Below, in pieces: positions 4,846 through 57,746 of a DNA stretch of 64,000 bases; position 1 is the first letter of the stretch; the number at the start of each line of letters is the position of its first letter. The stretch comes from Octopus sinensis (lineage: Eukaryota). Below the pieces are notes generated by a model. It saw only the letters and a program-made list of their open reading frames with translations, was not told where the DNA came from and made no database searches. Location: positions 147,002,001-147,066,000 of the forward strand of contig NC_042998.1 in NCBI RefSeq assembly GCF_006345805.1, in the 5' to 3' direction. Position numbers and translations under genes: made by a program.

Positions 4846-5069
4846 AAGGTTGTAAACATCAATTAGTTACCAATTTAATCTTATTTAACCTTTTCGCGAA
4901 ACTCAGAGGTGAGTTAGAGCTAAAATCTTTGGTTTTCTAATGTTGAGCAGACGAGTAAAAAGAAAATGTTCTGTTCGTGGACAGAGCCCTAATTCTTCGC
5001 TGAAAATTTTCCTAACAACATCTGGAGAACGTTCAGTACCGAACATACAGGAAAATTAGTACAAAGAGA

Positions 5070-5252
5070 ATTAATACATTATTTACATTTGACGGATATT
5101 TGTCCCCCATCTTGTTTGTTTTTAACACAACATTTCGGCTGATATATCCTCCAGCCTTCATCAGGTGTCTTGGGGAAATTTCGAATTTGGGTTCTCATTC
5201 CTAAGGTATTTCTGGATGTTATAATAATATTATTATTATTATATTATTATTA

Positions 5253-5299
<47 letters not shown>

Positions 5300-5414
5300 T
5301 CACTACCTAGAATCGAACTCGGAATCTTGGGGTTAGCAGCCCGCGCTCTTAACCACTATGCCATATGCCCTTCCGAATTCGATGCCAGGCAGTGACCTGA
5401 ATAATAATAATAAT

Positions 5415-5466
<52 letters not shown>

Positions 5467-5520
5467 TCCGTCAAATGTAAATAACGTACATAATTCCTCA
5501 TTGTCTTAAATATAGAACTG
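5070..5520 (-). mobile_element. tRNA-headed, hammerhead-containing element plus an inverted, internally deleted copy
   Basis: Minus strand: tRNA-like head 5370->5296, (AAT)n, hammerhead 5169->5124, tail ATATCCGTCAAATGTAAATAA. Plus strand 5371-5520 repeats the B-box half, (AAT)n and tail. Confidence 0.75.
5124..5169 (-). ncRNA. Minimal type-I hammerhead ribozyme motif
   Basis: gacac-CTGATGA-a ggctg gaggatatat cagcc-GAAA-tg-TT-gtgtt: canonical core, 5-bp stem II, 5-bp stem I. Stem III is probably ACGT with CpG decay. Confidence 0.75.
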
Positions 5521-6069
5521 AAAGAGAATTTATCTTGGTCAGAGACATAACAAAACATACAAAGGGTCGTGAAATCACGAGTCGTGAGCTGACAGTCCGT
5601 ATGAGATTTATTCAGTCGTTTCTCGTACACCTCATATTTCTTATAGAATATCATGTTGTAATGGAGATTGAACACTGAATTTAGAATTGAAATTACAATT
5701 TCTTGTAGCCTTTCAATTTTTTGATATGAAATGGCTAAGATCCATTTATTCCAATTCATAGAAGACGAAGGTTTATTTCATGATGTAAGGTATAATAGTC
5801 AGTAGAAAGAGTACAGATTTTCTTGTCGCATTTTCTCATGTTTTCTCATAGGCCAGCGGCCTGGTTTTTAAATACATCTGACGTATGAACTGAGTCTTAA
5901 AGATTGCTTTTAGATACATGGTGCATTATATAAATTTGCCAATTTAATGTGAATCAAAAGCATGAAGTTATTAGTAGCTCTTTTGTGATGTGTATATTAA
6001 ATGATATTTATCCCTCACTGGACAGTGTACATTTTTTGCTGAACCAATCTATATTTGAACTGCAATCTA

Positions 6070-6544: not shown

Positions 6545-6840
6545 ATTGTGAGCTCGAATCCCGGACCGGGCTGCGTGTTGTGTTCTTGAGCAAGGCACTT
6601 TATTTCACGTTGCTCCAGTTCACTCAGCTGTAGAAATGAGTTGCGACGTCACTGGTGCCAAGCTGTATCGACCTTTCTCTTTCCCTTGGACAACACTGGT
6701 GGCGTGGAGAGGGGAGGCTGGTATGCATGGGCGACTGCTGGTCTTCCATAAACAACCTTGCCCGGACTTGTGTCTAGGAGGGTAACTTTCTAGGTGCAAT
6801 CCCATGGTCATTCATGACCGAAGGGGGTCTTTACCCCTTT
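6545..6840 (+). mobile_element. SINE family A, 5'-truncated, inside (TA)n
   Basis: Homologous to 57321-57620 including the tail CCATGGTC...TGACCGAAGGGGGTC. Confidence 0.85.
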
Positions 6841-6864
6841 ATATATATATATATATATATATAG

Positions 6865-8400
6865 GGAGTATTCACAAAAAAACGAAAGATGAAGACAGGT
6901 GGTGTAGACAACAAACAGATGTATTAGTATAACACTCGGGATGTGAAAAAGTCTTTAACGTTTCGGGCCTACGCTCTTCCACATAAAGGAACACTGAAAG
7001 AAACAAAGAGAGAAAATAAAGAATGTGTAGTGGCTAGCGATCTATCATGGCGAATGCCGGACAAAAGGGTCACACAGGAGGTATAGGGAGAAGGGGAGCT
7101 AATAAAGTAGTGGTGATCCGAAAACTCTCTTACACATGTGTATAAGAGAGTTTATATGTGCGTGTGGAAGAGGGCTGGTAATCTCGATGAGTGTGTGTGC
7201 GTATTTGTAGGTGTGAAAATGTGGGTCTCGGAAGTGGTCAGTGCTGATGCGTGCATGGTGGTGTGATGTGATGTGTTTGTGGTATGGTGGTGTAAGGTGT
7301 AGTGGTGTGTGGTGTGGTGTGATGGTGTTGGGAGGTGGTGGAGGCGAGAGTGGGGAAAGCAAGGGTGGGGTATATGGGTAGGCGGAGGGTGGAGGTAGAG
7401 GTGGAATATGTAGGAGTGGGTGTAAGGGATGGGGTGGAGTGGGCTAGAGAAAGATAGGGAAGGTGTAAGGGGAATGTGTAGGTGGTGGAGCGGGCTTACA
7501 AGGGAGGGGTGACGATGAAGAGGAGGAAGGAGAAGGTGGGCAGGAATGAAGAGAAGAGTGCAGGTGAAGGAGTCGGTGATATGGTCGATGATGGGTGCCG
7601 GTGAGGAGGGTGATGTTGGGGAGGTAAGGGCAAGTGCGGCAGCGTGGGCGGGAGCAGGGGAACGAGCCGGGTTGGGCGGTTGGGTTAGGGAAGAAGCTGT
7701 GGACCAAGAGGTCTCGTAGATTGTGGCTCGTTTGAAGGAAGGGGAGGGATCGGTTAGGGAAGATGTGTGAAGTGGACGGGTCGGACTGAAGTCGCCGGAA
7801 GGTTCGAAGAATGGTGCGCTGGAGAGGTAGGGCAGTGGGGTGGTAGGTTAGGGGAAATGGGAGGCGAGAGACGGCAGGGTGGGTTCGAGAGAAGAGAGCA
7901 GATATACGGTCCACAGAAGTGCTCTGGCAAAGGCGGTTTGGATAGTGGTAAGGGGATATCCACGTAGGATGAAGTGGCGAGCCATGAGTTGAGACTGAGT
8001 CTCAAAGTCATGGTCGTCACTAAAGAGCCTGTGTAGACGGACGAATTGGGAATAGGGGATGGAAAGCTGGGTGTGTTTAGGGTGGGAGGAAGAGTTGAGG
8101 TAAGAGTGAGAGTCTGTGTTTGTAGTAGATGGAGATGGTGAGAGTGGAGTGATGAATGCTGACCGAAATGTCATGAAAAAGAGACAGAGGTGTCAGAGAT
8201 AGTGCAGGAAAAGTGGAAGGCAGGATGGAAAGATTTGACAAAATAGAGGAAGGAGTCTAGATGTTCGCGGAAGAGTGAGGTCGCACCGATACAGTCGTCA
8301 ATATAACAGCCATATAGTTCAGGAGTGGTACCAGTGAAACTTGAGAATATTTGGGCCTCAACGTAGCCAACGAACAGGTTCGCATAGTTGGGGCCCATTA
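6865..8400 (-). mobile_element. Penelope-like element, 5'-truncated, GIY-YIG largely deleted, with pseudo-LTR
   Basis: MGPNYANLFVGYVE, YIDD RT motif, SIPYSQFVRLHRLFS thumb, CSRPRCRTC linker; pLTR ~6865-7550; (TA)n on both sides. Confidence 0.9.
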
Positions 8401-8439
8401 ATGTTATATATATTTATATATATATATATATATATATTA

Positions 8440-8497
<58 letters not shown>

Positions 8498-8580
8498 AAA
8501 ATTAATTAATAGAAACCACGCAAAAACCATATATACTGTATATATATATATTATATATATATATATATATGTGTGTGTGT

Positions 8581-8642
<62 letters not shown>

Positions 8643-9330
8643 TGTGTGTGTGTGTGTGTTGTGTGTGTGTGTGTGTGTGCTTGTGTGTTGTGTGTGTGTG
8701 TATGTGTGTGCTTGTGTGTAGAAAACAGCAGAATATGATAGATATGAATAACATAGCAAGTGCTCAAGCACTTTGTGTATATTTTCACTTAATGAATAAA
8801 ATAAAATTAAATAGAACAATAAAATAGACAATGTAAAAAAGTAACGGTAAAGAAAAGCTAGATGTCTCCAATTTTGTCATTGTCAATGTATATTCTAAAC
8901 TTGGCCTTTCAAGTTTGACCTCTTGCTTTATAAGCAGCAATTTTTCAGGAAGTTATTTAATAAAATGTGTAGTTCCTAACCAGGTCACATGAAGATTGAC
9001 AAAAATGCACGCTATTAACAGAGGTGGAGACCTCTGACACGAGTAATGTAAATCAGTTTGTCACCAGCCAAACAACCAGGGAACATACATACATACATAC
9101 ATACATACATACATACATCCATACGTACATACATACATACATACATACATACATACATACATACATACATACATACATACGTACGTACGTACATATATAT
9201 ATGTATACACACGCACATAAATACATATATACAAATATACATTATATATATGCGTATATATATATATACAAATATACATTATGTACAGATATGCGTATAT
9301 ATATGTGTGTGTGTATGTGTGCGCGTGTGT

Positions 9331-9645
9331 GAAGGTGCATGGCTTAGTGGTTAGGGCATTCGACTCACAATTGTAAGGTCGTGAGTTCAATTCCCGGTGA
9401 GCCGTTCTGAACTGCAGCAAGACACTTTAATTCACTTTGCCTCAGTCCACTGGCAAAAATGAATTGTACCTGTATTTCAAAGGGCCAGCCTTGTCATACT
9501 TTGTGTCACGCTGAATCTCCCTGAGATCTACGATAAGGGTTCACGTGTTTGGATTGTTTAGCCACTTGCACGTTAATTTCACGAGCAAGCTGCTCCGCTG
9601 ATCGTATCAGCTGGAACCCTCGTCGTCGTAACCGACGTAGTGCTC
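9331..9645 (+). mobile_element. tRNA-derived SINE (family A-like head, different tail)
   Basis: GAAGGTGCATGGCTTAGTGG...GAGTTCAATTCC, CAAGACACTTT core. Confidence 0.75.
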
Positions 9646-36413: not shown

Positions 36414-39015
36414 CGTACAGGAGAAACCTAAAGTCATTAACTTATCAAAGAAAACTCTATCCATAACAAAAATCAATATACTAGCCAAAGGTTTAAAGTT
36501 CACCCCAACCCCACGAAAAGCTAACCATACTGAAATTAAAGACAATGTTTCGGAATTCTGCTGAAAACTACGACTCGCAGAAGCACTAACTGACTACGAC
36601 AACGAAGATGAATCACTTGTCAAAAACAGAAGTAATTACCTTCCACATAAGGGTAGGAATAAAACACTGGATGACTTCTGCAATCATATCCAAAGTTTCC
36701 CCTACACATCCATTAAATGAAAAATTAATCCTAACCTCAACAATCTAGAATGGAAAAATCTGACTGAACTACAAAATGACAAAGAGCTGACAATTAAAGA
36801 AGCTGACAAAGGAAGTGCTGTAGTTCTGATGGACACAGAACACTATAAAAAACTAGTACTTTCCATACTAGAAAACGAAGCCTTCTACGAAAAAGTTATG
36901 AACTATAAACAACAAAAAACAATGAAAAATCTTGCATCCTTAATTCTTCTACATGGAAAAGGCCTGACAGAAAAAGAAACAGACTACATCACGAACTTCA
37001 AATGTAAACCCAGTCTTTTTTACGGCCTCCCTAAAATACACAAGAGCAAGATAATCAATGAAGCCTGCAAACAATCACCAGGCAAATATATACATATCCA
37101 AACGCCAGAAGACTTGACTTTAAGACCCATTTTAGCTGGGTCGGCCTGTGAAACCCACCGACTAAGCAATTTTGTAGACATCCTACTGAAACCCTTGCTG
37201 AAATACATCAAAAGTTTCATTAGGGATGATTTAGACATACTAGAACACCTACCAAAAACAATTAATGAAGAGGCAATATTGGTTACCTTCGATGTTATCA
37301 ATCTTTACACCAACATCCCCCATGACTATGGAATAAAAGCAATTAAATTACCCCGAAGTCCTCCTGGAACGCATATGCCAGATCTTTATTATTGAATCCT
37401 TAAAATTTATACTTCAGAACAATTATTTCCTATTTGATGACACATACTATCGTCAGAAATGCGGAATTGTGATGGGGACGAAAGCAGCTCCTGTTCTTGC
37501 GAACCTAATAATGGGTTATTTTGAATTCACCTTATATGAAGTATCACTTCAGAAATATGGTTACCCATTTTACCTCTACATAAGAGAAAATTGGAAGAGA
37601 TACCTAGATGACTGCTTTATCATCTGGAAGGAGAACATTGACAAACTTTTGGATTTCAAAACAACACTAAATGACATAAATAGTAACATTCAATTCACAA
37701 TGGAATATAACAAAGAACAACTCCCATTTTTAGACATCATGATAAAAAAAAGTTAACAATGAAATCATAACTGACATTTATTATAAAACAGCTGATTCAA
37801 AACAATATCTTCTCTTTAACTCATGCCACCCGAAACACATCAAAATAAACATCCCTTTCAACTTAGCAAAAAGGATCTGCACAATAGTGTCTGATAGAAC
37901 AACTCGGGACCTTCGTCTTCAAGACCTTAAAACAACACTTATTGAAAGACAATATCCACCCTTTCTTATCGACGAGGGAATTAAACGTGCCAAACAATTA
38001 GACACAAAAACACTAAGAACAATAAAAGATAACACCACACCTCAACTCAAAACATTACTATTTATATCAACACACAACCCCAGAAACAGTGAGGCCTTCA
38101 GCACTATTGTGCAAACTCTTCCTTTACTAACTAGAGATCCAAAAATGAACGACATCCTGAAAACACACAAACTCATCAAATGCAAAAAAAAAGACAAATC
38201 GCTAAAGAAACTACTAACAAATGCGACGCTTTACAACACAACCACGAAACCAACGGTTGAAAAATGTGGACGCCCAAACTGTGGAACCTGCTCCAACCTG
38301 CTTGAAGGTTAGGATTTCCTTTTCAAACAAGGACAGAGATTCACAATTAAAACTAGTTTCACTTGTGCCTCTGATAACCTACTTTATGTAATAACCTGCT
38401 CGGGTTGCGGACACCACTATATTGGACAAGCGAGTATGACCTTGAGAAAGAGAACCACTCTACATAAGGAGCAAATCCGTTTCCCGCAATACAGACAAAT
38501 TCCTCTCAGTGAACATATAGAAAAATGTGCAGGTAACATCAAACCAAATTTCACAGTCTTCCCTTTCTACCAGTGCAGAGACGCAATCTCTCAACTAGAA
38601 CGTTTAAATAAAGAAACTTTTTTCATTGAAAGATACAAAACACGTCTTAATATGCACGCATAACCAACTTTTATCTTTTTACATATTTCAATTCACGATT
38701 ACATCCCTGTACATAAATCCTCTACTAAACAAGGTTTTTGAAACTTGTCTCTGTCTGTACACATATGTAATCCCCACACATTACCGAAAGCTGAACAGTT
38801 ATCTCTCTTACCCACAACAATAACAATAATAACGACAACCATTTACCTCCCTTAATTTCATCACACACAATATGGACCAAATTCTAAAGAAAAAATATAT
38901 ATTCAAATAAGTAAAACATAATATCATGAATAGCGATAGCGAAACTGGTCGATATATTAAAAATTATATTAAAACTATATAAGTGTGCGTATTTTCCTTT
39001 TTTAATTTCTTAAAT
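36414..39015 (+). mobile_element. Penelope-like element, most of ORF preserved as a pseudogene
   Basis: VINLSK..LAKGLKFTPTP, IKEADKGSAVV, FYGLPKIHK, RPILAG, FDVINLYTNIP, MGTKAAPVLANL, RYLDD, KCGRPNCGTC linker, LYVITCSGCGHHYIGQ GIY-YIG; several stops and frameshifts. Confidence 0.95.
38921..38955 (+). ncRNA. Minimal hammerhead variant (core ATGAATA) in PLE 3' pLTR
   Basis: atatc-ATGAATA-gc gata gc-GAAA-ctgg-TC-gatat; perfect 5-bp stem I. Confidence 0.6.
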
Positions 39016-57660: not shown

Positions 57661-57674
57661 ACTGGAGAAAGACG

Positions 57675-57746
57675 TTCCCATGCCGGGAATCGAACCCGGG
57701 CCGCCTGGGTGAAAGCCAGGAATCCTAACCACTAGACCACATGGGA
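57675..57746 (-). tRNA. trnE-TTC: tRNA-Glu (anticodon TTC); intact cloverleaf, probably a retroposed copy
   Basis: TCCCATG/CATGGGA acceptor stem, CCTGG-CTTTCAC-CCAGG anticodon arm, CCGGG-TTCGATT-CCCGG T arm; 72 nt, no CCA. Confidence 0.93.

Follow-up and report, generated by a model that had tools for sequence, protein, structure and literature searches.

A probable two-armed insertion of a Poseidon-type Penelope-like terminal repeat with a tRNA-like head in the genome of Octopus sinensis

We have analysed a repeat insertion in a 64,000-nucleotide stretch of the Octopus sinensis genome (contig NC_042998.1, positions 147,002,001 to 147,066,000; hereafter the window). The insertion consists of two arms that stand head to head (Table 1). 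The main arm, on the minus strand, opens with a tRNA-like head carrying A and B boxes and continues through an (AAT)n tract into a body with a hammerhead motif; an inverted and internally deleted partial copy abuts the head, and both were present where the original prediction, made from the bare letters, had placed them. The predicted tail was found on the inverted arm, and the full tail is missing from the main arm. The inverted arm retains the last 29 nucleotides (nt) of the head and misses about 120 nt of the body, hammerhead included. A 10-bp target-site duplication (TSD) around the insertion had gone unnoticed in the first reading. We consider that the feature is probably a terminal repeat from a Poseidon-type Penelope-like element (PLE) that was inserted as two arms; its tRNA-type head likely promotes transcription by RNA polymerase III (Pol III).

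The autonomous partner of the repeat was found in the same genome. [quoted passage not shown] The RT piece matched PF00078 (E 9e-9), and the endonuclease piece had no Pfam match. The C-terminal piece was 56% identical to P0024, a full-length relative of 847 aa, and relatives at 33-70% identity share the same domains as the two pieces. The translations contain the CxC and two His (CCHH) and lack the Cys-rich CX2-5CxxC linker, which control Neptune ORFs of the same genome do carry; CCHH without this linker is the Penelope/Poseidon layout (PMC8557442; here and below, cited papers are represented by parts of their text). Read from motifs and layout in copies that were all broken among those seen, the partner would be a PLE of the Penelope/Poseidon clade with one ORF encoding RT and then GIY-YIG.

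The head and this ORF are physically linked. We examined 30 of 101 matches to the RT, and the head stood directly after the ORF end in all 23 loci that reach it, three of which may duplicate one place. The head starts about 30 nt past the PLE stop codon in ORF-linked copies, and the exact ORF-spacer-head junction occurs 282 times genome-wide versus 1,537 exact heads. Contigs bridged the junction in four of four other runs with different organism labels. The unit of head, (AAT)n, hammerhead and tail also precedes the ORF, the hammerhead and tail sharing the frame of the ORF start, and in tandem copies the tail runs in frame into the ORF (KYRTVSFNRYG). In one locus (L171), hammerhead, tail and ORF are spanned by a single open frame of 320 aa. 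Its alignment with the N-terminus of P0024 (44% over 276 aa) begins in the codons of the hammerhead. Accordingly, what looked like the body of a short interspersed element (SINE) is the first ~45 codons of the PLE, and the ATG in the main arm would be its start codon. With a type I hammerhead-containing unit before and after the ORF in partial tandems, the SINE-like unit is the pseudo-long terminal repeat (pLTR) of a PLE with RT and GIY-YIG. The proposal that the element uses PLE rather than long interspersed element (LINE) machinery was thus borne out: its 3' end is not borrowed from a LINE, as in tRNA-derived SINEs, and consists of the PLE ORF start and tail. The tail, for which similarity to a PLE pLTR had been suggested as a check, is the partner's own. 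We also observed a two-codon upstream ORF (ATG GCN TAG) at head positions +6 to +14 (5365-5357, minus strand), which overlaps the A box and precedes the putative PLE start codon.

Table 1. Parts of the insertion, in window coordinates.
Feature	Position	Strand	Remarks
Target-site duplication, left copy, AAAGAGAATT	5063-5072	+	10 bp; repeated at 5521-5530
Main-arm body (5' coding end of the PLE ORF), without tail	5075-5220	-	ends at the proximal one of two recurrent 3' ends
Minimal type I hammerhead	5124-5169	-	stem I of 5 bp, stem II, GAAA; helix III absent
Predicted hammerhead cut site	between 5129 and 5128	-	
Hammerhead core CTGATGA	5164-5158	-	within the hammerhead, 5169-5124
In-frame ATG, 5' of the hammerhead	5196-5198	-	reads MRTQIRNFPKTPDEGWRIYQPK in the window copy
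(AAT)n tract	about 5221-5295	-	variable length; between head and body
tRNA-like head	5296-5370	-	contains A box and B box
B box GTTCGATTC	5318-5310	-	within the head
A box TGGCATAGTGG	5363-5353	-	within the head
Inverted second arm, without tail	5371-5488	+	head positions 47-75, (AAT)n, 3' end; whole arm 5371-5520
PLE tail	5489-5520	+	inverted arm only; family length 31 nt
Target-site duplication, right copy	5521-5530	+	pairs with 5063-5072

The family is large. In the 2.72 Gb of genome searched, an exact 33-mer of the 3' end occurred 2,849 times and an exact 26-mer of the head 1,537 times, and the reversed controls occurred 0 times in both cases, so that the window feature is not a product of chance. 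Of 150 arms that had been selected by other means, 16 contain the exact 33-mer, from which we estimate about 27,000 arms genome-wide (17,000-46,000). Two insertions in 36 evenly spaced 10-kb stretches (360 kb), enough for a rough density only, correspond to roughly 15,000 insertions. Among 29 loci selected by the head, the body lay directly downstream in 25, on the inverted arm in two, off the contig in one, and was unclear in one. Bodies were also seen directly behind (AAT)n tails of other repeats (L008, L028, L030, L144 and L156), which suggests that the element prefers AAT tracts or is joined there by microhomology.

The manner of integration was read from 90 arms, taken from the first 100 matches listed for the 33-mer, every one of them on contig C1; one second arm, two already-sampled places and the last seven matches were left out. 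An inverted partner arm accompanied 45 of the 90. In these 45 two-armed insertions, the 31-nt tail was present on exactly one arm in 40, on both arms in none (8.9 expected, P 3e-8), and on neither arm in five, two of which look like matcher misses. The family thus shows the inverted, 5'-truncated arm and the one-ended tail that are described for PLEs (PMC8557442), and its 31 nt lie within the 30-40 nt of PLE tails. The outer ends share at least 9 nt in 25 of the 45, compared with 1.3% of mismatched pairs, and the resulting TSDs of 9-15 bp, a feature expected of SINEs, were read from the two-armed insertions. LINE-type tails together with TSDs had been named as what would speak against the original prediction; TSDs are present, and the tails are not LINE-type. 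On the one hand, the tail is the PLE's own, and on the other hand, PMC8557442 mentions target duplications of differing lengths for PLEs, so that the TSDs do not tell against a PLE. Within an insertion, each arm has a 3' end of its own, and these two sites lie 31 nt from each other. Copies in direct tandem are rare (L012/L013, L144/L145, L157 and L217), and the remaining copies are single or head-to-head.

The 5' ends of the copies point to a defined start at the head. When the furthest 5' point was taken from either arm of 90 insertions, it lay in the body or (AAT)n in 32, inside the head in 12, between head positions -12 and +8 in 31, and in the ORF in 15, the last being assigned by eye. Three ends at -17 correspond to the junction palindrome and were counted as head-start ends; a head fragment some distance away was left out of account, and two loci are tandem duplicates. 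Thus, of the 46 insertions that reach the head start, 31 stop there within a 21-nt interval, versus about 3 expected from the rate inside the head (P 3e-26), and ORF-bearing copies also begin there in four of the five examined that reach it. The commonest A box is TGGCGTAGTGG and the commonest B box GTTCGATTC, and both boxes match the consensus in 19 of 46 arms. As for the head of a tRNA-derived SINE, the box pattern and the tRNA spacing agree with PMC8969392. A start about 6 nt before the tRNA-like +1, with boxes at tRNA spacing, is as Pol III would give, and the head is a likely Pol III promoter. We consider it quite probable that Pol III makes the short RNA; that it makes the RNA of the whole coding element is a more tentative proposal.

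Pol III terminates at runs of at least four T (T4); this threshold is assumed, and that of the animal itself may differ. The natural 2,587-nt unit contains 0 T4 runs on the sense strand, and a shuffle of synonymous codons gave a mean of 3.7 (P 0.009). For comparison, Neptune-type PLE ORFs of three families from the same genome, with the same T content and base composition, contain 23 T4 in 6,831 nt. Pooled copies of the element carry 8 T4 in 45.9 kb, each common to at most two copies, and a second pool carries 16 in 46.9 kb. For lack of TTTT, Pol III would run on through the unit. As support for Pol III, this depletion is suggestive and not decisive.

A number of observations weigh against this interpretation. 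The T4 contrast depends on the control, since six other long ORFs in control loci have 1.1 T4 per kb, giving P 0.055, and G4 runs are likewise 0 in the majority columns. A headless Poseidon control family was not found, all 30 RT-selected loci examined (of 101) belonging to the same family. The fold of the head is not a cloverleaf (z +1.3), and no parent tRNA was singled out among the few isotypes sampled, with best scores of 38-39 for Glu, Ala, Arg and Cys. Uncapped Pol III RNA is translated poorly, which leaves the source of the protein unexplained. Also, no intact ORF was found, the longest frame among those listed being 572 aa, and the copies diverge by 4.5-8% from the commonest letters, so that the family may be inactive. 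In unstranded mRNA-type reads from three runs of one study, no pile of starts or ends was seen.

Those three raw RNA runs (organism B) gave 6,575-9,634 reads on the natural copy, equally on both strands, and 72-76% of the reads continue into unlike sequence. This looks like read-through in host transcripts, and the reads are accordingly uninformative on Pol III RNA. The joint of a monomer circle was absent among the joints listed from these runs. With the Rfam tRNA model, the head in the window scored 21.7 bits (E 0.059), below the 29-bit cut-off. An A/B-box pattern was absent 3' of nine Neptune-type loci, but the pattern caught only one of four copies of the Poseidon-type family itself, which makes this a weak control. 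A metagenome scan with P0024 revealed no DNA of relatives in other species.

The hammerhead had been described as well paired and canonical. Its position and the pairing of stems I and II were confirmed; helix III is absent, and the motif is thus not canonical. Among the 90 sampled arms, 74 span the motif, and its core is intact in 41 of these. The commonest form in the family is the palindrome GAAACGTT (30 of 74 arms), in which AACGTT stands where the window hammerhead has AATGTT; the decayed GAAATGTT of the window copy, a CpG-type change, was found in six of 74. The family motif takes the form GAAACGUU. In a monomer-active type I hammerhead, helix III comprises at least 1-2 bp and carries a loop, and GAAACGTT or GAAATGTT leaves none. 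Accordingly, the motif fits the minimal, dimer-type hammerhead known from metazoan PLEs (PMC4209133) and not the monomer-active one. The RNA of the element may cleave itself; it would do so only as a dimer, and cleavage is probably dispensable for making short copies. Folding gave no significant z-score for the hammerhead (-1.1 against shuffles for the window copy), the head or the tail, and Rfam hammerhead models matched neither the window copy nor a younger copy. Rfam miRNA matches were microsatellite artefacts.

From these features, a course of events may be proposed for the Poseidon-type element. Pol III would start about 6 nt before the head. The PLE protein would prime reverse transcription inside the RNA at two tail sites, and the RT of Anolis Poseidon PAc does prime in vitro at two internal sites bounding the tail (PMC11167929). 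Both cut target strands would likely prime, one at each RT start site, and the two cDNAs would end up joined head to head, in many cases via the small palindrome where the RNA begins. Any RNA that starts at the head, be it full-length or from a solo copy, would give a SINE-like copy of about 300 nt with a fixed 5' end when primed in its first repeat, and priming in the last repeat would yield ORF-containing copies. In its widest form, the proposal is that the PLE switched to Pol III through a captured tRNA-derived promoter, that TTTT was purged from its 2.6-kb sense strand, and that internal priming yields a 300-nt SINE family without a LINE; we regard this as possible, with reservations.

The original prediction had seen the short copies as a non-autonomous SINE, and as a separate lineage this was not supported, the unit forming the pLTR and the opening codons of the autonomous PLE. 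Heads linked to the ORF (n=63) and solo heads (n=111) showed the same commonest letter at every column tested, as did their bodies; the low P values, few in number, stem from stronger decay of the ORF-linked copies, which is confounded by the choice of loci. Without a diagnostic column, the short copies seem to derive from one and the same master, and no lineage distinct from the autonomous partner appeared in this sample of heads. They are therefore likely by-products of the full PLE rather than a separate parasite. A true SINE lineage would consist of solo copies with intact boxes that Pol III transcribes and that the PLE protein moves in trans, with no involvement of the full element. It could explain why solo head-start copies outnumber ORF-linked ones by about 5:1, why 19 of 46 arms keep both boxes, and why divergence is slightly lower in the solo copies than in those linked to the ORF, a difference confounded by best-hit selection. 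However, no variant distinguishes the 111 solo from the 63 ORF-linked heads and bodies, and the unit is the sequence of the autonomous element, which makes this explanation rather improbable. Some mobilisation in trans is compatible with the best explanation, namely the two-armed insertion of a PLE terminal repeat.

Ordinary 5'-truncated PLEs would account for the copies if the head were a dead passenger and the pile-up of 5' ends arose from a Pol II start or from stalling or fold-back of the RT at TGCCC-AC-GGGCA. Many junctions are centred on this palindrome, the pLTR of Drosophila Penelope has an internal promoter (PMC8557442), and solo minimal hammerheads have been described as probable truncated PLEs (PMC4209133). 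However, head-start ends also occur without a second arm or with the junction off the palindrome (for example, L134, L140, L155, L214, L222 and L235), and a 5-bp stem with a 2-nt loop would be too weak to halt the RT. The explanation would also leave open why boxes of consensus sequence, spaced as in a tRNA, follow immediately after the start, and why T4 is lacking; we consider truncation of this kind unlikely. The least probable explanation by far is a LINE-mobilised tRNA SINE in which a hammerhead repeat nested by chance at the (AAT)n. Such tracts attract insertions, and bodies stand behind the tails of other elements in four of the loci above (L008, L028, L030 and L144). However, the head is found together with the body, it keeps a fixed place after the ORF here and in contigs of four of four other runs, and the 3' ends are PLE tails and not LINE tails. 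Independent occurrence of head and hammerhead, named at the outset as what would speak against a single element, was not seen, and a body adjoining the head in 25 of 29 loci excludes chance nesting. An ancient capture at (AAT)n may explain the origin of the head, not the present copies.

In the window, a second repeat family forms a 94%-identical inverted pair at 1345-2220, with hammerhead-like cores at 2002 (plus strand) and 1562 (minus strand). Its motif CTGATGA...GAAATCGG-GT-CCGATA can form a 5-bp helix III, and its minimum-energy fold is not the hammerhead fold; it may be a better candidate for monomer cleavage than the motif at 5169-5124. This pair is likely a Neptune pLTR, since it matches a region about 1.6 kb 3' of a Neptune-type ORF (L282). 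A decayed Neptune-type PLE ORF lies at about 36470-38650 (plus strand), with a protein 54-61% identical to the L282 family and 9 T4 in 2,180 nt. L282 (949-3291), L283, L294 and others form a young Neptune-type family with several intact ORFs of 781 aa, which is likely active or recently active. With regard to tRNA-like sequences, the window carries a tRNA-Glu(TTC) gene at 57674-57746 (minus strand) and, at 9333-9405 (plus strand), the tRNA-like head of another, unrelated SINE-type repeat (Rfam 32 bits); elsewhere (L343), several tRNA-Cys-like genes with variant anticodons are clustered within 3 kb.

SINEs are Pol III RNAs that borrow LINE machinery. The PLE promoters described so far are not tRNA-type, and the octopus element joins features of SINEs and PLEs. 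It provides a concrete route by which a SINE-like family can come from a PLE and a testable explanation for repeats with promoter and hammerhead such as Sm-alpha. Should Pol III make the full RNA, terminators have been kept out of a long ORF, and the mode of translation of this ORF then comes into question. The fixed 5' end and the strict one-arm tail over thousands of copies are a natural data set for PLE integration, with two priming sites, one for each target strand. Repeat libraries likely split the family into 'SINE' and 'Penelope' entries. A full-text literature search returned no PLE whose promoter is of the tRNA type; papers under subscription, Repbase, Dfam and the libraries in supplements lay outside its scope and may contain the element. 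Cephalopod repeat and genome papers give SINE and Penelope classes without this link in the parts covered (PMC13282606, PMC8967140, PMC6962438).

Penelope/Poseidon-clade PLEs are among the closest known systems. [quoted passage not shown] Unlike PAc as covered there, the octopus element opens its pLTR with a tRNA-type A/B-box head, has short copies with a fixed 5' end, and lacks T4 on the sense strand; a Pol III promoter is not mentioned for PAc or Penelope in the text covered on either. Animal non-LTR retrozymes are similar in that they are short non-coding elements with type I hammerheads, proposed to come from PLE pLTRs and to use PLE proteins (10.64898/2026.07.22.740005; PMC7761336). However, they are head-to-tail tandem repeats and are stated to be promoterless (PMC7761336), whereas the octopus copies are dispersed, head-to-head or single rather than head-to-tail hammerhead units, have a promoter-like head, and share the sequence of a coexisting PLE. 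The Sm-alpha and Sj-alpha repeats of Schistosoma also combine a Pol III-type promoter and then a hammerhead in a SINE-like repeat, but they are often tandem and no autonomous partner is named in the part of PMC6765202 covered, whereas the octopus unit is its partner's own pLTR. Among tRNA-derived SINEs are the octopus retroposons reported by Ohshima and Okada (1994; by title only); such SINEs share the tRNA-like head with A and B boxes, the defined 5' end, the target duplications and copy numbers of tens of thousands; by contrast, the octopus unit ends in a PLE tail and not in a LINE tail, half of its insertions are two-armed, and it forms no independent lineage. Finally, Helenus/Ajax and Cassandra likewise carry a piece derived from a small-RNA gene in the terminal repeat of a retrotransposon that does not depend on LINEs; these are non-autonomous LTR elements (PMC10886601), whereas the octopus element is a protein-coding PLE.
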